DNA of 64,000 bases from Parcubacteria group bacterium (GTDB lineage: Bacteria; Patescibacteriota; Minisyncoccia; UBA10092), in assembly GCA_016186325.1 (NCBI GenBank), contig JACPLW010000002.1, forward strand, positions 66,290 to 130,289, given 5' to 3'. The translations under genes were made by a program, and so were the position numbers. The notes below the pieces were generated by a model. It was not told where the DNA came from. It saw only the letters and a program-made list of their open reading frames with translations, and made no database searches. Position 1 is the stretch's first letter, and each line of letters opens with the position of its first letter. Shown here piece by piece: positions 13,659-60,862 of this stretch.

Positions 13659-13793
13659 TTAAACAGTTAGCTTATAACGGCCTTTTCGCCTTCTCCTCGA
13701 AATGACCGCGCCTCCGCCTTTACTACCCGCCCTTTTTAAAAATCCGTGCTTGCGTTGTCTTTTTATTTTTTTTGGATTATAGGTTTTACTCAT
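13659..13793 (-). CDS. rpmH: 50S ribosomal protein L34
   Basis: Hand translation of the minus strand gives MSKTYNPKKIKRQRKHGFLKRAGSKGGGAVISRRRRKGRYKLTV; not in the supplied ORF track because it is under 60 aa. Confidence 0.85.
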   Translation of the reverse strand: MSKTYNPKKIKRQRKHGFLKRAGSKGGGAVISRRRRKGRYKLTV

Positions 13794-13889
13794 CCCGTTA
13801 GAAATTTAATTCTAAATAATAATTTTCACTATATCTTAAAACTATAAACAATATATCCTGTTAAATAACTAGTATAGATTTCTAACAGG
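13794..13889. repeat. long-range inverted-repeat pair CCCGTTAGAAAT ... 72 bp AT-rich spacer ... ATTTCTAACAGG (copy a); left arm abuts the rpmH start codon
   Basis: Left arm 13794-13805 lies immediately 5' of the rpmH ATG on the minus strand; right arm 13878-13889 has one substitution that is a G-U wobble only on the minus-strand transcript. Confidence 0.7.
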
Positions 13890-14060
13890 ACTCATACTTT
13901 TATATTTTTATAACACGAAAATTGATATTGCGTCAAACATTTAAATTAATTTATACTTTTCAACAGAGTACTCACAGGTTATTAACTTTTTTACGAATGA
14001 AAGTTTTCTTAAAACCCTTTTACTTAATGATATACTGGAAATGTAGAATTTATAATCAAC

Positions 14061-23293: not shown

Positions 23294-23298
23294 TTGAT

Positions 23299-23397
23299 CC
23301 CGTTAGAAATCTAATTTAATTATATTAAATTTGCATTTTTATAAACTCATGAGTTGATTATCCGCCTCGCTTTGACTAAACATAAATTTCTAACGGG
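23299..23397. repeat. inverted-repeat pair CCCGTTAGAAAT ... 75 bp spacer ... ATTTCTAACGGG (copy b), 5 nt upstream of the ruvB start codon
   Basis: Perfect 12-bp arms at 23299-23310 and 23386-23397. Confidence 0.75.
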
Positions 23398-23639
23398 ATT
23401 GACAATCTCACTTAATTTAAGTATAATATAAAAATATGGCATCAGTTGTTCCTAATAACCTCGAGGCAATAAAGACTCTATTTTAAACCATAAGGTCTTT
23501 CTGGGGGCTTTTCCATGTCGGGTGATCTGGTTCCGATTGGATCATTGCACAACTTAGTCCTATCCCTTCAAGCTGGCTTGAAGGACCATTGCCTCGAGAT
23601 TATTAGGCGCAAGTCTACTCCGATTATTTATGAGATTTT

Positions 23640-25533: not shown

Positions 25534-25983
25534 ATGATTGAAGCAATCTCCAAATCGGCAAACGAGACAAAAAAGATTGCGGTCTCGCTAGCGGAAAAGA
25601 TAAAAAAGCGGCCGCTTTCAAAAGTAGCGCTTATTATTGCTTTGGAAGGCGATTTGGGCTCCGGTAAAACCACCTTTATCCAAGGGTTGGCTCAAGAACT
25701 GGGAGTTGAGGAAAACATTTTAAGCCCGACTTTCGTGATTCAAAAAGATTTTCCGCTTTCTTTAAAAAATTTTAAAAACCTTTATCACATTGACGCTTAC
25801 CGGTTGAAGAATCCGCTGGAACTTCTGGAACTTGGATTTGAAGACTTAATCAAAAATCCGGAAAATCTCATTGTTATCGAATGGGCTGATAAAGTTAGAA
25901 AGATTTTGCCAGAAAACATTTTAAAAATAAAACTTGTTAATTTAAAAGGCAGTAAAAGAAAGATTCAAATTTTCAATTTCTAA
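25534..25983 (+). CDS. tsaE: tRNA t6A37 biosynthesis protein TsaE
   Basis: P-loop LEGDLGSGKTTFIQGLA; start chosen at MIEAIS (ORF-track start at 25459 is probably an extension). Confidence 0.75.
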   Translation: MIEAISKSANETKKIAVSLAEKIKKRPLSKVALIIALEGDLGSGKTTFIQGLAQELGVEENILSPTFVIQKDFPLSLKNFKNLYHIDAYRLKNPLELLELGFEDLIKNPENLIVIEWADKVRKILPENILKIKLVNLKGSKRKIQIFNF

Positions 25984-26099
25984 TTTTCAATTTTCAATCA
26001 ATGATACAATTTAACAATTTTCAATTAATTCTTTATTGTTTGAAAATTAAATCATTGAAAATTCAATGAAAATTGCAAATTGAGAATTAAAAATTATTT
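25984..26099. repeat. AT-rich intergenic repeat (TTTTCAATTTTCAATCAATGA ... TCATTGAAAATTCAATGAAAATTGCAAATTGAGAATT), copy 1
   Basis: About 110 bp, nearly identical in order and sequence to 31031-31150; partly palindromic; upstream of polA. Confidence 0.7.
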
Positions 26100-28604
26100 A
26101 TGAAACGTCTTATTTTAATAGATTCTCACGCTTTAATCCACCGCGCTTATCACGCCTTGCCGCCGCTTACTACCAAAAGCGGCGAATTGGTAAACGCGGT
26201 TTATGGCTTTACTTCAATTTTAATAAAAACCATTTCCGGTTTTAAACCGGACTATATTGTTGCCGCTTTTGACGCTCCCGGCGCCACTTTCAGGCATGAG
26301 GAATACAAAGAATATAAAGCGACTCGCGTTAAAGCGCCGGATGAGCTATACATCCAAATACCGCGCGTCAAAGAAATCTTAAACGCTTTCAAAATTCCAA
26401 TTTTTGAAAAGTCTGGGTTTGAAGCCGACGATATTATCGGCACAATTTCCAAAAATTTAAGGGGAAAAAACGTCGAGGTTCTGATTTTAACCGGAGACAT
26501 GGACAATTTTCAGCTTGTCGGAAAAAACGTTAAGGTTTTATATTCTCCTCCCAGCGCGGCCAAAGAGCAGATCGTTTATGATTCTAAAAAAGTTGAGGAA
26601 CGTTTCGGCGGCCTTAAGCCGGAACAACTTATTGATTTTAAAGGTCTCAAGGGCGACCCCTCGGACAATATTCCGGGGGTCAAAGGTATCGGAGAAAAAA
26701 CCGCGATTGCTTTGATTGATCGGTTTGAGAATATAGAAAATTTGTATAAAACTATTAAAAAAGGAAAAATTAAAGAAATTAGCGCCGCTGTTTTTGAGAA
26801 ACTAAAGACCGGAAAAGAAGCCGCTTTTTTTTCAAAAAAACTAGCGACTATAAAACAAAACGTCCCGATAAAGTTCAACTTAAAAGAAAGCGAATTCGGT
26901 AAATTTGATAAAGAAAAACTCTTTAAATTATTGGGAGAGTTAGGATTTGTAAGTTTGGTAAATCGTATGGGCGGGGCTATGGCGGGCAAGCCCCGCGGAA
27001 GCGAAGCGACTTTGCGGGGCAGTCCCTCCTCCGCTAAAGCTATGGCGGGCAGGCAGGGGACTTTGGCGATGCCTCCAAGTGCCGATATCAAGGGCCAAAT
27101 CGGTTATGATTTCAAATCTTTTATTAAAACTCCAAAAGGGAAAAAAATAGTTATCGGCGGCGGCGATTTTGACGTTATGATTGCCGCCTACATTCTTAAT
27201 CCGGGCGAGCGCGATTATAGTTTAGAAAAATTGAGTTTGGGGGAATTTGGCGCGGTTTTACCGAAAACCGAAGCTGTTTTAAAACTGGCGCCAATTTTAA
27301 AAAACCGGCTGATTGAAACCGAAACCGAAAAAGTTTTTAAAGAAATTGAAATGCCTCTTATACCGGTTTTGGCGAAAATGGAAATCGCCGGAATAAAAAT
27401 GGATGTTAAAAAGATAAATAAATTAGATGATTACCTCGGGAAAGAATTGAAAAAACTTGAAAATGAAATTTATAAGTTAGCCGGCGGAGAATTTAACATA
27501 AATTCGCCTCAGCAATTATCAGAAATTCTTTTTTTTAAATTGAAAATTCCTGGGGCTTTGGCCGGGGGTCGCATTAGAAAGACACCCGGCGGCGCGCTTT
27601 CAACCGGAGCGGCGGAACTGGAAAAACTAAGGTCGGGGCATAAAATCATTGATTTTATTTTAAAATATCGAGAGCTGGCAAAGTTAAAATCGACCTATAC
27701 CGATACGCTGCCGAAATTAGTCGATAAAAACAAGCGGATTCACACCACTTTTAATCAAGCGGGGACGGCAAGCGGGCGGCTGTCAAGCCAGGACCCGAAC
27801 TTGCAAAATATTCCGGCCCGCGGCGCTTGGGGCGATAAAGTGCGCAAAGCTTTTATTGCCGAAAAAGGATACAAATTTCTATCCGTTGATTATTCCCAGA
27901 TTCATTTAAGAATTATCGCGGCGCTAGCTGATGATAAAAAGATGATTGAGGCGTTTAAAAACGGATTAGATATTCATAAATTTACCGCTTCCGAAATAAA
28001 CAATGTGCCAATTGAGAAAGTTACCGGCGAGATGCGTTTTGCCGCTAAGGCGCTTAATTTTGGAATAATTTACGGTATGGGAGCCTTAAGCTTTGCCGAA
28101 TCGGCCGGCGTCAGCCGCGAAAAAGCCAGAGAATTTATTACTGAATATTTGAAGGATTTTTCCGGCATCGCCCGTTATATGGAAATTCTAAAAAACAAAG
28201 CCAAAGAATTGGGATTTACCGAAACGCTTTTTGGCCGCCGGCGCTATCTTCCGGAAATTGATTCGCCAAACCCGATGCTTCGCGCTCAAGCCGAGCGGAT
28301 AGCCGTTAATATGCCGATACAAGGCCTTGAAGCCGACATTATTAAAAAGGCGATGATTGAAATTGATAAATGGCTGCGCGGAAATGACAATATTAGAATG
28401 ATTTTGCAAGTCCATGACGAACTACTGTTTGAAGTCAAAACGGGTTTTGTAAAAGAAGCGGCTAAAAAAATTGTAGAACTTATGGAAAGCGTAATAAAAT
28501 TAAAAGTGCCGATTATCGCAGAAGCCAAGGTGGGTGATAATTGGGGGGAAATGGAACCATACAAAAAATATGCCGGAATTGCCCGAAGTACAAACAATCG
28601 TTGA
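26100..28604 (+). CDS. polA: DNA polymerase I (5'-3' exonuclease plus polymerase domains)
   Basis: N-terminal FEN-like domain, polymerase motifs A/B/C (e.g. RRYLPEI, QVHDELLFE); carries a GC-rich in-frame insertion. Confidence 0.9.
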   Translation: MKRLILIDSHALIHRAYHALPPLTTKSGELVNAVYGFTSILIKTISGFKPDYIVAAFDAPGATFRHEEYKEYKATRVKAPDELYIQIPRVKEILNAFKIPIFEKSGFEADDIIGTISKNLRGKNVEVLILTGDMDNFQLVGKNVKVLYSPPSAAKEQIVYDSKKVEERFGGLKPEQLIDFKGLKGDPSDNIPGVKGIGEKTAIALIDRFENIENLYKTIKKGKIKEISAAVFEKLKTGKEAAFFSKKLATIKQNVPIKFNLKESEFGKFDKEKLFKLLGELGFVSLVNRMGGAMAGKPRGSEATLRGSPSSAKAMAGRQGTLAMPPSADIKGQIGYDFKSFIKTPKGKKIVIGGGDFDVMIAAYILNPGERDYSLEKLSLGEFGAVLPKTEAVLKLAPILKNRLIETETEKVFKEIEMPLIPVLAKMEIAGIKMDVKKINKLDDYLGKELKKLENEIYKLAGGEFNINSPQQLSEILFFKLKIPGALAGGRIRKTPGGALSTGAAELEKLRSGHKIIDFILKYRELAKLKSTYTDTLPKLVDKNKRIHTTFNQAGTASGRLSSQDPNLQNIPARGAWGDKVRKAFIAEKGYKFLSVDYSQIHLRIIAALADDKKMIEAFKNGLDIHKFTASEINNVPIEKVTGEMRFAAKALNFGIIYGMGALSFAESAGVSREKAREFITEYLKDFSGIARYMEILKNKAKELGFTETLFGRRRYLPEIDSPNPMLRAQAERIAVNMPIQGLEADIIKKAMIEIDKWLRGNDNIRMILQVHDELLFEVKTGFVKEAAKKIVELMESVIKLKVPIIAEAKVGDNWGEMEPYKKYAGIARSTNNR
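26966..27090. repeat. GC-rich palindromic element inserted in-frame in polA, flanked by a 13-bp direct repeat GCTATGGCGGGCA
   Basis: Direct repeats at 26975-26987 and 27047-27059 flank the hairpin CCCCGC-GGAAGCGAAGCGACTTT-GCGGGG; encodes GAMAGKPRGSEATLRGSPSSAKAMAGRQG in the linker between the nuclease and polymerase domains. Confidence 0.7.
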
Positions 28605-30751: not shown

Positions 30752-31030
30752 TTACAATTTATTGACGATTTTGGTTAGACGGGATTTCATTCGACTGGCG
30801 GTGTTCTTTTTAAGAAGATTATTTTTTACTGACTTGTCCAGAGCCTTGTAAACTTTTGGCAAGAACTCGATCGCGCCCTTTTTAGCTTTGGCTGTTATTA
30901 GTTTTTTTAGCGCCGCAAGCTCGCCTTTAAGAAGGCGTGATTTATTTAGATTATTCTTTCGTTGCCTTTTGTTTTTTCTTAAGGCCTTTTTAGCCGCTTT
31001 TGTTATTGGCATGTTTTTAATAATTTTCAA
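30752..31030 (-). CDS. rpsT: 30S ribosomal protein S20
   Basis: Basic helical protein MPITKAAKKALRKNKRQRKNN; true start may be the internal Met at 31012. Confidence 0.8.
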   Translation of the reverse strand: MKIIKNMPITKAAKKALRKNKRQRKNNLNKSRLLKGELAALKKLITAKAKKGAIEFLPKVYKALDKSVKNNLLKKNTASRMKSRLTKIVNKL

Positions 31031-31150
31031 TTTCTAATTTTCAATTTTCAATCAATGATTTAATTTTTAATTTTCAAACGTTTGAAAACTGGGCTATTGA
31101 AAATTCAATGAAAATTGTAAATTGAGAATTGTAAATTGATTATATATACA
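31031..31150. repeat. AT-rich intergenic repeat, copy 2 (same family as 25984-26099)
   Basis: TAATTTTCAATTTCTAATTTTCAATTTTCAATCAATGAT ... ATTGAAAATTCAATGAAAATTGTAAATTGAGAATT in the rpsT/ruvA divergent promoter region. Confidence 0.7.
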
Positions 31151-31790: not shown

Positions 31791-31887
31791 TTATCAATCC
31801 CGACGTAAAAGTCGGGACTCCGACCGAAACTCCGACGGTACCGTCGGAGAATGCGTCGGAGTTAAAAAAAGCAAGGATAATAGTAGT

Positions 31888-32091
31888 ATGAAAGACCATA
31901 ATCACGATTTAATTCATCATTTGTCGGAAACAATTGATAGCATTTGGCGGTATGATGAATACATAAAAAACGCGCAAGGTTGCGAGCATTGTACAAACTT
32001 GTGGGCGAAGCTGAAAGAAACAGATCAGGAAGCTGAAAAGATGCTTTTGGAAGAAATAAAACGGCACAGCGATGAAAAAAGATTCGACTAG
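31888..32091 (+). CDS. small hypothetical protein (67 aa) bracketed by palindromic hairpin clusters
   Basis: ORF MKDHNHDLIHHLSE...CEHC with an AAGGA RBS 12 nt upstream; strong terminator directly downstream. Confidence 0.35.
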   Translation: MKDHNHDLIHHLSETIDSIWRYDEYIKNAQGCEHCTNLWAKLKETDQEAEKMLLEEIKRHSDEKRFD

Positions 32092-32096
32092 ACAAA

Positions 32097-32173
32097 AACA
32101 ACCCCGCAGCCCCGACGTTATAGTCGGGGCTCCGACCCCTTAAAGGCGTCGGAGCTGCGGGGTTGTTTTTTTT
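32097..32173 (+). terminator. compound terminator: 14-bp outer stem AACAACCCCGCAGC/GCTGCGGGGTTGTT with two inner hairpins, followed by a T tract
   Basis: Inner hairpins CCCCGAC-GTTATA-GTCGGGG and CTCCGAC-loop-GTCGGAG, then TTTTTTTT. Confidence 0.65.
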
Positions 32174-38031: not shown

Positions 38032-40137
38032 CTAAATTTCAGTTTCTTTATCTTTATTTTCTTTGTCCTCCGACTCGTCTGCCAAAGCCTTGGCGTCGGT
38101 GGAATCTTTTGGCGAAGGAGGATTAGGGTTCTGCCAAGTGGCCCAGTCGCATTGCGGATAGCTCGAACAGCCCCAGAAAGTTTTTCCTTTTCTGGTCCGG
38201 CGCTTCACAATTTGGCCGGTGTCACATTTTTTGCAAGCCCCCAAATCTTCCTTGCCTTCCGTAGCTTCAGCGGAGGAGGGTTTTTCTAGGTTAGCGGTGT
38301 ATTTACAAGCCGGAAATCCGGTACAGGCGTAAAACTTTCCGTATCGTCCCATTCTGATAATCACCGGCTTTCCGCACTCGGGGCATTTAAGCTCTGTTGC
38401 TTCGGTTGCGAGTTCGCTTTTAGAAAGTTCGGTGCTTTTTTTATCGAGATTTTCTTTAAATGGTTCCCAAAATTCTTTGATAACAGGCTGCCACTTCTTT
38501 TTTCCATCGGCGATATCGTCAAGGTCTTCTTCCATCTTGGCAGTGAATTTAATGTCAACGACCTTGGGGAAATGAAGAACCAAGATGTCGCTTACCAAAA
38601 TACCAATATCAGTCGGCTTTAATCTTTTTTGTTCGTCTTTAATAACATAGCGGCGCGCCTGTATGGTCGCTAAAGTCGGGGCGTATGTTGAAGGCCGGCC
38701 GATGCCGTGCTCCTCAAGCGCTTTGATTAAACTAGCTTCGTTATATCGGGCCGGCGGTTCTGTAAAGTGTTGTTCCGATTTTAGTTCTTTTAGTTTCAAT
38801 TCCTCGTTTTCCAGAAGGTTTGGCAAGTTTGTTTCGGCAGTTTTCATCGGATAAACTTTAAGAAAACCGTCAAATTTTAAAACATTGCCGGTAGCTCGGA
38901 AAACATAATTTTCTTTGGATTTTCTTTCCGCGGAAATATCGGCCGATGTCGCTTCAAAAACTGCTGTCGGCATTTGAGTGGCTAAAAACCTTCTCCAAAT
39001 CAAGTCATAAAGCTTAAACTGTTGGGGTGTTAGTTTGTCTTTCAAAGAATCCGGGTTTGTAGAGGATTGAGTCGGTCGGACGGCTTCGTGCGCTTCTTGG
39101 GCCGATTTCGATTTAGTCTTAAAAATCCGCGGTTCCGGCAACAAATAATTTTTGCCGAACAACTTTTCTATTTCTTTAAAAGCAGCTGTGACGGATTCTT
39201 TGGAAAGGTTAACTGAATCTGTTCTCATATAGGTTATGAAACCGGTTTCATATAATTGTTGGGCGACTACCATTGTTTGTCTGGCACCAAAACCGAATTT
39301 TGAAAAAGCTGTCTGCTGAAGGGTGGAAGTGGTGAAAGGCGGAAGCGGCTGTCTTTTCATTTCTTTTTTTGTTATTTTTTCTACCGAATAATCGGCGCCG
39401 TCTAAGTCGGATATGATTTTTTTTGCATCATCCGCGGTTTTGATTCCAAACTTTTCCAATCTCTTTTCCCCGATTTTTATAAGATTAGCTAAAAATTCAC
39501 CTTCCTTTGAATTGGAAATTGGAAATTGAAAATTGGAAATTCTCGATTTACGCAGTACTGCGTAAATCGAGTGATATTCTTCCGGTTTGAAATTCAAAAC
39601 TTCTTTTTCTCGCTCAACCACGAGACGGACGGCTACCGATTGGACGCGGCCGGCCGATAATCCGCGGGCAACTTTTTTCCATAAGAAAGGGGAAAGCTTG
39701 TAGCCGACTAAGCGGTCAAGAATCCGCCGCGCCTGCTGGGCGTCTACCAGCCGCATATCAATTCCCCGAGGATTTTTCAGCGCTTCTTCTATCGCGGATT
39801 TGGTAATTTCATGAAAAACAATTCTCTCATGCGGTTTTTTTTCTAGGCCGAGAGCGCTCACAAGATGCCAGGAAATGGCTTCGCCTTCGCGGTCTTCATC
39901 TGTCGCTAAAATTACCTTTTCCGATTTTTTTGCCTCACTTTTGAGGTCGGCGACTCTCTTTTTGGCTTTCGGTAAAATTACGTATTGGGGTTCAAAGTTT
40001 TTTATAATATCAATTCCGAGTTTTTTTTCCGGTAAATCCCGAACATGGCCGTATGAGGATTCAACTTTAAAATCGCTCCCAAGGAATTGTGAGATGGTTC
40101 GGGCTTTAGTTGGCGATTCAACTATTACTAATTTCAT
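38032..40137 (-). CDS. topA: DNA topoisomerase I
   Basis: Toprim start MKLVIVESPTKART, catalytic region, multiple C-terminal Cx2C zinc ribbons; contains two in-frame repeat-element insertions (38070-38124 and 39487-39566). Confidence 0.9.
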   Translation of the reverse strand: MKLVIVESPTKARTISQFLGSDFKVESSYGHVRDLPEKKLGIDIIKNFEPQYVILPKAKKRVADLKSEAKKSEKVILATDEDREGEAISWHLVSALGLEKKPHERIVFHEITKSAIEEALKNPRGIDMRLVDAQQARRILDRLVGYKLSPFLWKKVARGLSAGRVQSVAVRLVVEREKEVLNFKPEEYHSIYAVLRKSRISNFQFPISNSKEGEFLANLIKIGEKRLEKFGIKTADDAKKIISDLDGADYSVEKITKKEMKRQPLPPFTTSTLQQTAFSKFGFGARQTMVVAQQLYETGFITYMRTDSVNLSKESVTAAFKEIEKLFGKNYLLPEPRIFKTKSKSAQEAHEAVRPTQSSTNPDSLKDKLTPQQFKLYDLIWRRFLATQMPTAVFEATSADISAERKSKENYVFRATGNVLKFDGFLKVYPMKTAETNLPNLLENEELKLKELKSEQHFTEPPARYNEASLIKALEEHGIGRPSTYAPTLATIQARRYVIKDEQKRLKPTDIGILVSDILVLHFPKVVDIKFTAKMEEDLDDIADGKKKWQPVIKEFWEPFKENLDKKSTELSKSELATEATELKCPECGKPVIIRMGRYGKFYACTGFPACKYTANLEKPSSAEATEGKEDLGACKKCDTGQIVKRRTRKGKTFWGCSSYPQCDWATWQNPNPPSPKDSTDAKALADESEDKENKDKETEI

Positions 40138-44798: not shown

Positions 44799-44883
44799 TA
44801 AAACTCAAAAGCGTCTCGTTATTAAACGAGACGCTATTTTTTTGGTGTCATCTATTCTATTTTGGGTTTTAACCTTAATAGGT

Positions 44884-45456
44884 TTATTGAGAGCCGCTCG
44901 TCAGCCCCGACGGTACCGTCGGGGCCAGTTGGCGGATGGCTTTTTTTATGGTCTTATCAAGTTCTTTTAATTCTTCGGGCGTGAATTTTTTTAATATTAT
45001 CTTATCCGCTTTTACTCTTGTATTTTGCTTGCCCGCCGACTTGTCCGCCAAAGCTTTGGCGTCGGCGGAAGCTTTAGCGAAGGCGGGTTGGATGCCGATT
45101 CTCAAGCGCCAGAAGTTTTTTGTTTTAAGATTTTTTATTATGGATTCAACACCCTTGTGGCCCGCCGAAGAACGACCGAAAGAAAGTTTGAAATTGCCCC
45201 ACAAGATATCAATGTCGTCATGAGCAATTAAAACATTTTCCGGCTTTATCTTAAATTTTTTCATCAAAGCCAAAACCGCCGCTCCGGATTTATTCATAAA
45301 AATCCCAGTTTTAGCTGAAACAACTTTTTTGTTTTTATAATTATTTTCTAAAGCATCAATAAATAAAAAGCCTGCGTTGTGCCTGGTGAGCTCATATTCT
45401 TTTCCGGGATTGCCAAGCCCGATGATTAATTTGACCCCGTTAGAAATTTTATTCAT
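44884..45456 (-). CDS. pth: peptidyl-tRNA hydrolase
   Basis: LIIGLGNPGKEYELTRHNAGF catalytic motif (His-Asn); C-terminal region contains in-frame repeat elements (45031-45088) and a palindromic tail CCCCGACGGTACCGTCGGGG. Confidence 0.85.
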   Translation of the reverse strand: MNKISNGVKLIIGLGNPGKEYELTRHNAGFLFIDALENNYKNKKVVSAKTGIFMNKSGAAVLALMKKFKIKPENVLIAHDDIDILWGNFKLSFGRSSAGHKGVESIIKNLKTKNFWRLRIGIQPAFAKASADAKALADKSAGKQNTRVKADKIILKKFTPEELKELDKTIKKAIRQLAPTVPSGLTSGSQ

Positions 45457-45531
45457 AAAAATTCTTTAAGTTAAAATTAACAATTTGTATTGTATGCTTC
45501 ATTAGTTTAGATAAATAGATTTCTAACGGGG
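45435..45531. repeat. inverted-repeat pair CCCCGTTAGAAAT ... 71 bp spacer ... ATTTCTAACGGGG (copy d, 13-bp arms) in the pth/lepB divergent region
   Basis: Left arm lies inside the first codons of pth (MNKISNGV is encoded by ATGAATAAAATTTCTAACGGGGTC); the extra C/G is co-varied on both arms. Confidence 0.75.
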
Positions 45532-45628
45532 TTGATTTTATCCATTTTTAGTATATAATTATCTGGTATTTTGTATATTGTATCTGGTATCTAGTATACC
45601 AAATACAAAATACCAAATACAAAATACA

Positions 45629-47944: not shown

Positions 47945-48184
47945 ATGCCTATTGAAGTGAAAAAAAAAGAAGGAGAAAGCGCATCAAGCCTTTTAAGGCG
48001 TTTCTCAAAACGCGTCCAGCAAAGCGGTGTTCTGATAAGGGCTCGCAAGGGCCGTTTTTACCTGTCAGAGCCGACTAAACGTCAAAAGAGGTTAGGCGCT
48101 TTGCGGCGGCTTAAAAACCAAAAAGAAAGAGAAAAACTCTATAAATTGGGCAAATTGCCTCCGGAAAAGAAATTTAGGCGTTAA
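47945..48184 (+). CDS. rpsU: 30S ribosomal protein S21
   Basis: 79-aa basic protein MPIEVKKKEGESASSLLRRFSKRVQQSGVL with S21-like pattern. Confidence 0.75.
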   Translation: MPIEVKKKEGESASSLLRRFSKRVQQSGVLIRARKGRFYLSEPTKRQKRLGALRRLKNQKEREKLYKLGKLPPEKKFRR

Positions 48185-48185
48185 T

Positions 48186-48283
48186 CCCGTTAGAAATCTA
48201 AGTTGGTGGACTAATGGGGGAATATAAAAATTTCGTAGTTATTATAGAAATCGAATCATTATTTAACATAAATTTCTAACGGG
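48186..48283. repeat. inverted-repeat pair CCCGTTAGAAAT ... 74 bp spacer ... ATTTCTAACGGG (copy e) filling the rpsU-yqeY spacer
   Basis: Left arm starts 2 nt after the rpsU stop; right arm ends at the base immediately before the yqeY ATG. Confidence 0.75.
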
Positions 48284-48775
48284 ATGACTCTGAAAGAAAG
48301 AATAAACGAAGATCTGAAAACCGCTTTTAAAAGCGGTTCTAGTGATGTTGTTTCAACTCTGCGATTTTTATCGAGCGTAATTAAAAACAAAGAACTTGAA
48401 AAAAGAACCAAGATGTCAAAAGAAGGAGGACTCGCGAAAGAACTCGAAAAGCTGTCGGAACTTACTGAAGAAGAATTGATCGGTGTGATTTTGGGAGAAA
48501 TAAAAAAAAGAAAAGAATCGGTTGTCCAATATGAAAAAGGCGGCCGCGCCGATCTGGCAGAAAAAGAAACCAAAGAACTTGAAATTATTAAAAAATATGC
48601 ACCGGAAGAAATGCCCGAAGACGAGTTAAGAGCGATAATTAAAGGAAAGATCGGCGAGATAGGCGGCGCAACGATGAAGGATTTCGGCCGGCTGATGAGT
48701 TTAATAATGGCTGAAGTCAAAGGCCGAGCCGGCGGCGATATCGTTAAAAAAATAATAGAAGAAGAGTTAAAATAA
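48284..48775 (+). CDS. yqeY: GatB/YqeY-domain protein
   Basis: MTLKERINEDLKTAFKSG N-terminus and overall helical pattern of the YqeY family; rpsU-yqeY synteny. Confidence 0.75.
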   Translation: MTLKERINEDLKTAFKSGSSDVVSTLRFLSSVIKNKELEKRTKMSKEGGLAKELEKLSELTEEELIGVILGEIKKRKESVVQYEKGGRADLAEKETKELEIIKKYAPEEMPEDELRAIIKGKIGEIGGATMKDFGRLMSLIMAEVKGRAGGDIVKKIIEEELK

Positions 48776-49206: not shown

Positions 49207-49248
49207 AAATTTAGAAATTAGAAATTAGAAATTAGAAATTTTCGTTGC

Positions 49249-56221: not shown

Positions 56222-56263
56222 CCCTTGCCCGCCGAAGCTTTAGCGAAGGCGGGTTTCATTTAC

Positions 56264-56488
56264 TTATTTCTTTTTGGGCTTTGAAAGAGTTTTAATACAC
56301 TGAACACAAGCCCTGACTCTTTTTTCAGATGACCCGCTTTCGCCAAGGCTTCGGCGGGCAAGCAAAAACACCCGTTGAATATTGGGATATTTCCTTTTTT
56401 TATCTGAGGGGTTATACTTACCGCGTAGTTTATTTCTCGGCGTTAAAAGCATTGAACCTTTACCGCAAATTTCACATATCTTAGCCAT
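56264..56488 (-). CDS. rpmB: 50S ribosomal protein L28
   Basis: MAKICEICGKG zinc-ribbon start and ...VRACVQCIK tail; contains an in-frame G/C hairpin insert (56331-56363) encoding RRSLGESGS. Confidence 0.75.
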   Translation of the reverse strand: MAKICEICGKGSMLLTPRNKLRGKYNPSDKKRKYPNIQRVFLLARRSLGESGSSEKRVRACVQCIKTLSKPKKK

Positions 56489-60679: not shown

Positions 60680-60775
60680 AGTTATTTCAATAATTTATCA
60701 GCCGACACACCGAGTGCGTTAGATATTTTTTCTAGAGGTGATTTTTATGGGCGAGCCCACCTTCGCTAAAGCTTC

Positions 60776-60862
60776 GGTGGGCGAGGAGAGAGTCGAACTC
60801 TCACGAGGAATTACCCTCAAAGGATTTTAAGTCCTTCGTGTCTGCCATTCCACCACTCGCCC
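60776..60862 (-). tRNA. tRNA-Leu (anticodon TAA), type II
   Basis: Hand-folded: acceptor GGGCGAG/CTCGCCC, D-loop AATGGCAGA, anticodon stem AAGGA/TCCTT with loop CUUAAAA, variable arm GAGGGTAATTCCTC, T-arm GAGAG-TTCGACT-CTCTC, ACC after the acceptor. Confidence 0.8.

Follow-up and report, generated by a model that had tools for sequence, protein, structure and literature searches.

A dispersed GC-rich hairpin repeat read in-frame by pth and topA in a Parcubacteria-group genome

Introduction

Why do two unrelated essential genes of one bacterium carry the same short GC-rich segment of DNA, and why do both read it in-frame? The question is raised by a 64,000-nucleotide (nt) stretch of contig JACPLW010000002.1 (hereafter the window) from a Parcubacteria-group metagenome-assembled genome (MAG) near Candidatus Azambacteria, in which an initial annotation noted a composite palindromic element common to pth and topA. 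To our knowledge, the textbook record of in-frame invasion of housekeeping genes by palindromic repeats comes down essentially to the Rickettsia palindromic elements (RPEs), for whose spread and effects on proteins we know of no explanation. Our analysis leads us to the view, to which we assign a probability of about 0.8, that the shared segment belongs to the selfish DNA of the Patescibacteria (the candidate phyla radiation, CPR), as a small, dispersed, GC-rich repeat that forms a hairpin, spans about 60 nt and works like the RPEs.

The shared element and its insertion sites

Pairwise nucleotide alignment of the pth and topA segments gave approximately 80% identity across 66 nt with a single indel. 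The best local alignment scored 38, compared with 12.3 ± 1.3 (maximum 17, n = 100) for codon-shuffled pth controls, and a 30-nt degenerate core pattern matched the window exactly twice, in pth and in topA, where 100 shuffles gave an expectation of 0. Both strings quoted in the initial annotation are found in the sequence, with the pth string starting at 45036 instead of 45031; the full element has the bounds listed in Table 1, which are nhmmer envelopes. Translation of the two open reading frames (ORFs) bore out the in-frame reading on the minus strand. The pth copy encodes FAKASADAKALADKSAGKQ (in the wider context QPAFAKASADAKALADKSAGKQ), the topA copy encodes PPSPKDSTDAKALADESED (in the wider context NPPSPKDSTDAKALADESEDK), and the peptide shared by the two is (A/T)DAKALAD(K/E)S. 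Its supposed location near both C-termini holds for topA, where the copy occupies residues 672-691 of 701 in the tail beyond the zinc-ribbon region, but not for pth, where it occupies residues 124-143 of 190 in a loop between RIGIQP and ADKIILKKF.

Both insertions proved to be lineage-specific when compared with three syntenic relatives, L001, L003 and L004, which have the gene order pth ... dprA-topA-relA and TopA proteins that are 75-80% identical. In topA, 19-20 extra codons stand between the conserved WQNP and K(E/N)NK..TEI, and they are missing from all three relatives. At the pth site, DNA alignment found nothing in L003 (..CAACC is joined directly to GGAAACC..) and only a 30-nt short form, CCCGCCTTCGCTAAAGCTACGGCGGGCAAGC, encoding AFAKATAGKQ, in L001 and L004. 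The window carries this short form with 30 further nt inside it. In a 34-sequence alignment that includes the window Pth, which is 100% identical to a Parcubacteria MAG protein, the loop is empty in P0016, P0003, P0010 and P0022 and is filled in other relatives by AFAKATAGKQ, IRQAQGKPAL, IQNTKYKIQNT, ASGEARQGR or longer peptides. Because the loop is either empty or occupied by differing repeat-derived peptides, we consider it a clade-wide insertion hot spot. Against solved Pth chains, residues 124-153 are unaligned or are matched to a loop that is longer in 3v2i (Burkholderia Pth), and both flanks align.

The two modules described in the initial annotation turned out to be parts of one long hairpin, in which TTCGCTAAAGCTT pairs with AAGCTTTGGCGGA and the stem is closed by CCCGCC/GGCGGG. 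The first of the two (GCCAAAGCTTTGGC within CCGAC/GTCGG) falls inside the 30 nt that separate the long form from the short form, and the second (GCGAAGGCGGG...) is the left arm, which is part of the older short form. The short form equals the long form minus 30 nt between two TC dinucleotides, such that CCCGCCTTCGCTAAAGCTTC and GGCGGGCAAGC abut once CGCC...AAGTC is removed. Performing this excision on the pth copy yields a short form one base off the intergenic copy at 56224-56253 (final C versus G). At the pth site the long form is confined to this genome, and the short form is widespread in the clade. The likeliest origin of the pth copy is therefore either a 30-nt (nested) gain or conversion from a long-form copy located elsewhere. 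A simple nested insertion was rejected as an account of the pth copy, given that the composite is found complete in topA and in every other member of the family; the long form is thus taken to be a propagating unit in its own right.

DNA as the unit of homology

The likeness between the two copies lies in the DNA and not in the peptide. Over the DAKALAD stretch, 19 of 21 bases match and both mismatches are synonymous. The left arms are homologous as DNA (CCCGCCTTCGCTAAA-GCTTCC in pth and TCCTCCTTCGCCAAAAGATTCC in topA), yet the arm is one base out of register in topA, where it reads PPSPKD versus PAFAKA in pth until an extra A restores the frame. Compensated 1-nt indels thus account for the arm being read in different frames in the two genes. 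The homology also reaches the 3′ tail (CGGGCAAGCAAAAT versus AGGACAAAGAAAAT), and GC content at third codon positions is 0.6-0.7 in the element compared with 0.41 for the long ORFs of the window.

These details bear directly on whether the resemblance could have arisen at the peptide level, through convergence on or shared ancestry of an Ala/Lys-rich low-complexity linker whose DNA likeness follows from codon constraints. The shared peptide is of low complexity and is predicted, with low confidence, to be helical, and Lys/Ala-rich tails are common in DNA-binding proteins. We nevertheless find such an origin scarcely credible: orthologues lack the segments, synonymous sites are conserved in GC-rich codons that are atypical for this genome, the DNA homology runs on through the stretch that is read in different frames, and copies of the element occur in noncoding DNA and are read in four different frames. 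The initial annotation had offered an ancestral conserved peptide, with DNA similarity owed to codon constraint alone, as the finding that would overturn its claim, and both the orthologues and the frame-shifted homology speak against it.

A dispersed family in unrelated host genes

The same element occurs well beyond this genome, so that pth and topA, although they do share it as first proposed, are no private pair but belong to a widespread family. Searches with a core pattern of 28 nt found matches on 4 species-representative MAGs, and those with a 30-nt version found matches on 18 metagenome contigs from groundwater and sediment projects, in loci of 34-58% GC. The family consensus is CCCGCCTTCGCTAAAGCTTCCGCCGACGCCAAGGCTTTGGCGGACAAGTCGGCGGGCAAGC. 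Conservation of the central 30 nt is built in, since the search pattern prescribes those bases; in the 31 element columns outside the searched core, mean pairwise identity is 67%, compared with 25% in flanking DNA. Two element-bearing contigs with different host genes have LepA proteins only 45% and MurJ proteins 33% identical between them, and conservation of this depth would reflect either horizontal spread or constraint on the element. The breadth of the family also speaks to a private exchange between pth and topA, by ectopic recombination or gene conversion and involving no repeat family. The two copies do lie on the same strand, 7 kb apart and in the same frame. Such an exchange is nonetheless highly improbable, as the element is present on 22 other contigs in unrelated genes and intergenic DNA, and the pth and topA copies have no private derived changes in common: they match the consensus at 98% and 75%, respectively, and one another at only about 74-80%.

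Pfam-confirmed hosts are RecG, MurJ, GltX, MurC, LepA, AtpD, an M3 peptidase and a P-type ATPase, and further hosts were recognized by eye from the translation: an RluD-like synthase and, apparently, a histidine kinase, a CopA-type ATPase and GyrB (with a possible intein). The element stands between helicase motifs in RecG, inside the GTPase domain in LepA and just past VDVEFP in AtpD. The sequence NYKL..NYKL around the LepA insert was considered as a target-site duplication and rejected because it resembles a motif that flanks this same site in the LepA protein of Escherichia coli. Intragenic copies use both orientations and four reading frames. Forward copies are read as ASADAKALADKS in Pth, TopA, RecG, CopA, AtpD and the RluD-like protein, and as FRRRQGFGGQVG in MurJ; reverse copies are read as DLSAKALASAEA in GltX, GyrB, MurC, LepA and the M3 peptidase, and as RRLVRQSLGVGGS in the histidine kinase and the P-type ATPase. 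None of the six frames contains a stop codon, and each host gene among the family members examined has one long-form copy. Some copies of the family are intergenic, and that of L008 is followed by a T run. Two host loci show further insertions. The GyrB gene of L016, which lies on the opposite strand and has the element at about residue 1054, appears from its translation to have an intein-like insertion, and the GltX gene of L012 has a separate short-form-like copy (SSFAKASADKKATAGQ) in addition to its long-form copy (PADLSAKALASAEASAKAG).

The insertions that could be sized are all close to whole codons (60 nt at pth relative to L003, 57-60 nt at topA, and a 156-nt block described below). From this preservation of frame we infer that the element is translated; tolerance of the added peptide is likewise proposed. 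GC-rich, hairpin-forming DNA within coding sequence could in principle escape translation, either bypassed by the ribosome or removed at the RNA level, a precedent being the GC-rich byp insertions in the mitochondria of certain yeasts, and open frames could follow from base composition. We judge this very unlikely here, as a segment that is skipped has no need of a whole-codon length and in the topA copy compensating indels preserve the reading frame.

Hairpin structure and possible host functions

The pth copy is predicted to fold at -31 kcal/mol, with z = -4.2 for the coding strand and z = -3.5 for the other strand. Across 23 copies, 90% of the cells are paired. Three outer-stem pairs are changed on both sides, for example from CCCGCC/GGCGGG in pth to TCCTCC/GGAGGA in topA, and every one-sided change in the long helix is compatible with wobble pairing (U.G to or from C-G, or A-U to or from G.U).

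A structure of this kind might be kept for the benefit of the host, as a terminator or RNA-stabilizing hairpin, as a site of protein binding or recombination, or as an uptake signal, with the intragenic copies tolerated or exapted. The stable fold and the wobble-compatible changes would suit such a cis-acting element, as would strong conservation across contigs with LepA proteins as divergent as those above, T-rich runs after the intergenic copies in L008 and at 56224-56253, and short-form copies that abut tRNA genes. Several observations make this explanation unlikely for the family as a whole. Copies lie in host transcripts in both orientations, so an RNA-level function there is improbable. 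No T run follows the pth or topA copies, where the coding strand continues as AAAATACAAG and AAAATAAAGA, respectively, and the fold has been lost from the topA copy. Rfam returned only three tRNAs at the gathering threshold in the window and nothing at E ≤ 10 in 44850-45250. Finally, where the search pattern fixes the partner base, transitions alone would be enough to produce the wobble pattern.

Copying and proposed mobility

Evidence for recent copying comes from two contigs of the same project, L017 and L022. A 156-nt (52-codon) block that combines the long form with other GC modules is 99.4% identical between MurC, where it is reversed, and an RluD-like gene, where it is forward, and the flanks are unrelated. 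AATTTC is present at both junctions of the block in each contig, which is consistent with a 6-bp target duplication or with a preferred target. Additionally, the block is bounded by the motif AATTTCCAATTTCC, which is similar to an AT-rich module of the window described below. Mobility of the repeat is proposed from comparisons such as these.

Searches for a vector gave 0 matches of the core pattern in viral contigs and no match of the consensus by blastn against phage and plasmid collections, so these collections provide no evidence for a phage or plasmid vector. A 42-residue peptide made by concatenating the forward and reverse readings of the element had no matches in the protein database. 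The only terminal inverted repeat of the element is its outer stem, CCCGCC/GGCGGG, of 5-6 bp.

Short forms and other repeats in the window

An nhmmer profile run across the window recovered two full copies and about five partial, short-form copies (Table 1). The decayed copy in topA lies just C-terminal to the Pfam zinc ribbon at residues 584-619 and shows four extra, diverged residues relative to the relatives. The intergenic hairpin at 56224-56253 matches the pth element of L004 at 29 of 31 nt and is followed by a T-rich run on the plus strand. At 60756-60783, the acceptor end of tRNA-Leu(taa) forms one arm of the hairpin. The polA block (GGAMAGKPRGSEATLRGSPSSAKAMAGRQG, in ORF 26100-28604) is situated between the 5′-3′ exonuclease and polymerase domains and contains short-form-like modules.

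Table 1. Coordinates of the element copies, their host genes and related features in the window
Feature	Coordinates	Strand	Remarks
pth ORF, host of first copy	44884..45456	-	190 residues; Pfam PF01195 Pept_tRNA_hydro, E = 1.9e-41
Long-form copy in pth	45027..45087	-	nhmmer E = 2.9e-20; encodes PAFAKASADAKALADKSAGK(Q)
30 nt (10 codons) setting the long form apart from the short form of orthologues at pth	45038..45067	-	contains palindrome GCCAAAGCTTTGGC; from DNA alignment
22-nt perfect palindrome GCCCCGACGGTACCGTCGGGGC, last codons of pth	44904..44925	-	different hairpin family (CCCGAC/GTCGGG), D12
topA ORF, host of second copy	38032..40137	-	701 residues versus 664-672 in relatives; Pfam Toprim, Topoisom_bac, Zn_ribbon_Top1 (two zinc ribbons)
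Long-form copy in topA C-terminal tail	38061..38122	-	nhmmer E = 8e-16; encodes PPSPKDSTDAKALADESED(K); diverged
Decayed short-form-like copy in topA (KPSSAEATEGK)	38242..38280	-	pattern match with 3 mismatches; weak nhmmer partial, E = 0.8
Intergenic short-form hairpin (CCCGCC TTCGCTAAAGCTTC GGCGGG CAAG)	56224..56253	-	just 5′ of tRNA-Pro(ggg); repeat family D8, 96%; fold z = -3.2
Second intergenic short-form copy (CCCGCTTTCGCCAAGGCTTCGGCGGGCAAGC)	56332..56363	+	nhmmer E = 0.008
Short-form copy (CCCACC TTCGCTAAAGCTTC GGTGGG)	60756..60783	+	overlaps 3′ end of tRNA-Leu(taa); nhmmer and pattern
GC-rich in-frame 97-nt block with short-form modules (..AMAGKP..SSAKAMAGRQ..) in polA	26967..27063	+	pattern and nhmmer (27023-27068)

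The window contains other repeats as well. The palindrome that the initial annotation placed at the end of pth is there, at 44905-44924, whereas its reported second occurrence lies at 31830-31849 instead of 31836-31855 and differs by two bases (CTCCGACGGTACCGTCGGAG). DNA alignment finds this terminal palindrome (APTVPSGLTSGSQ) in L001 and not in L003 or L004. It belongs to a second hairpin family, CCCGAC..GTCGGG and CTCCGAC..GTCGGAG, which is represented by the pth end (44904-44925) and by intergenic compound clusters at 31795-31865 and 32094-32170; these clusters flank a 67-residue ORF at 31889-32091, and a T run follows the latter. Direct repeats of about 120 nt, 79-96% identical, are located at 25968-26101 and 31022-31143, 5.05 kb apart, and bracket polA and two ORFs.

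An AT-rich module, ATTTCTAATTTTCAATTT, reading ISNFQF, is found in-frame in topA (39509-39540) and in intergenic DNA (25962-26094, 31016-31136 and 49208-49239), with 12 matches versus 1.2 expected. Its topA insert (RISNFQFPISNSK) has nothing at the corresponding position in L001 and L003, and L004 has a different insert there. Inverted pairs of a 13-nt motif, (A/G)YCCCGTTAGAAAT ... ATTTCTAACGGGR, enclose variable AT-rich spacers of about 65 nt at 13789-13895, 23294-23399, 45431-45532 and 48181-48285. One of these pairs overlaps the pth start codon, so that the Pth N-terminus, MNKISNG, is encoded by the motif; such pairs may represent paired operators, promoter elements or one more type of small repeat. 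A 31-nt AT-rich inverted repeat (GTATTTTGTATATTGTATCTGGTATCTAGTA / TACCAAATACAAAATACCAAATACAAAATAC) occupies 45560-45627 in the divergent intergenic region that separates pth from a downstream signal-peptidase-like ORF. The closest relatives, L001 (6398-7813) and L002 (2287-3702), have a diversity-generating-retroelement-like pair (a bAvd accessory protein and an RVT_1 reverse transcriptase) between HIT and hisS that is not present there in L003 or L004.

Interpretation

In the model that we prefer, a selfish hairpin repeat, copies would land in intergenic DNA and inside genes alike. An intragenic copy would persist only if it added whole codons (about 20), introduced no stop and fell in a tolerant site, for example a loop on the protein surface, a linker between domains or a terminal tail. 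Such a copy would then simply be translated, most commonly into the Ala/Lys/Asp-rich readings ASADAKALADKS (forward) and DLSAKALASAEA (reverse). The pth copy, at 98% of consensus, would be a young one that extends an older 30-nt short form in a hot-spot loop, and the topA copy would be older and decayed, in a C-terminal tail past the zinc-ribbon region. Our preferred guess for the means of copying is a single-stranded hairpin copied by a trans-acting enzyme, with recombination between copies contributing.

A number of results weigh against this model. Comparison with empty sites reveals no target-site duplication where the 60-nt element joins pth or topA sequence, and neither a transposase nor convincing terminal inverted repeats tied to the element were found. 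In a tblastn search of the window and 26 loci for HUH transposases (IS200, IS608 and REP-associated tyrosine transposase, RAYT), the best hit had E = 0.87, a weak test in that the queries were approximate and the sample of DNA small. For RPEs, too, we know of no transposase. The topA copy folds no better than shuffles (z = -0.9), and roughly half of the copies have a mismatched outer stem, with pair 12/61 unpaired in 11 of 23. Because the pattern used to gather the family prescribes the central 30 nt, most pairs in the structure test are uninformative; with the 3′ arm fixed in this way and one outer pair so often broken, we give the pairing test limited weight. The 64-kb window holds only two full-length copies. 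An AlphaFold2 model of Pth built on the 34-sequence alignment had a mean predicted local distance difference test score of 46, which is too poor to place the insert. Lastly, some intergenic copies (L008 and 56224-56253) look like terminators, and part of the family may have a host function.

A broader proposal is more tentative, and we hold it at somewhat less than even odds. The repeats may form a clade-wide family in Patescibacteria of GC-rich hairpins of about 60 nt that colonize essential genes in-frame (AtpD, LepA, RecG, MurC, MurJ, GltX, Pth, TopA and apparently GyrB, with short-form modules in PolA), in both orientations and at least four frames. They may be built up hierarchically from 30 to 60 to 156 nt, have moved recently, perhaps mobilized by an enzyme as single-stranded hairpins, and quite generally give rise to lineage-specific loops in the proteins of the CPR.

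Comparison with known systems

We found no published description of such elements in Patescibacteria or the CPR in a literature of incomplete coverage, and the element is probably new to this group. An intrinsic terminator combines a GC hairpin with a downstream T run, a feature that the pth and topA copies lack and that only some intergenic relatives (L008 and 56224-56253) show. Repetitive extragenic palindromic (REP) elements are short GC-rich imperfect palindromes with many dispersed copies that are thought to act as single-stranded hairpins. REPs are extragenic, have a GTAG-type 5′ tetranucleotide and occur with a RAYT (HUH Y1) gene. Here, in contrast, many copies are intragenic, the positions before the stem are variable with no GTAG, and the DNA searched showed no HUH gene. 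Miniature inverted-repeat transposable elements share with our element a small size, a non-autonomous nature, hairpin potential and the ability to make in-frame fusions, and the AATTTC flanks of the 156-nt block could be a target-site duplication. The present element may differ in its outer stem, which spans only 5-6 bp and is mismatched in around half of the copies, and no parent insertion sequence was found in the window and 26 loci.

Palindromic amphipathic repeat coding elements (PARCELs) are coding DNA with dyad symmetry that is patchily distributed among microbes and linked to mobility, and they encode tandemly arrayed 25-residue amphipathic motifs in ORFs whose function is unknown and which are often membrane-targeted (PMC2996958). 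Both strands of the present element encode similar Ala-rich peptides, which recalls the PARCELs, but the element occurs in single copies within conserved enzymes.

The closest parallel is provided by the RPEs, which are about 150 bp long, fall into ten Rickettsia-specific families, each with a conserved encoded peptide, and are dispersed, often in-frame in unrelated metabolic genes (PMC10969869). As in that system, the repeats described here are palindromic and dispersed through intergenic DNA and ORFs, and they stand in-frame in unrelated housekeeping genes that remain intact and whose orthologues lack them. They differ in being about 60 nt long, GC-rich in loci of 34-58% GC, hosted by Patescibacteria, inserted in both orientations and four frames, and modular at 30, 60 and 156 nt. 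The element is not a member of an RPE family; size, host and the use of several frames set it apart from the RPE description, which served for this comparison in place of the RPE sequences.

If our reading is correct, it adds a second, unrelated and much smaller family to in-frame palindromic invasion, which would then be no Rickettsia oddity, and gives the RPEs an undescribed counterpart in a radiation that holds a large share of bacterial diversity. It would also supply many natural pairs of filled and empty sites for studying how enzymes tolerate inserted peptides, and explain part of the "low-complexity" sequence and of the lineage-specific insertions that hamper alignment, annotation and structure prediction of CPR proteins. 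Repeats of this kind are likely break points in metagenome assembly. With pth and topA in the window, as with the Rickettsia genes invaded by RPEs, a palindromic repeat has come to be part of the coding sequence of housekeeping genes.

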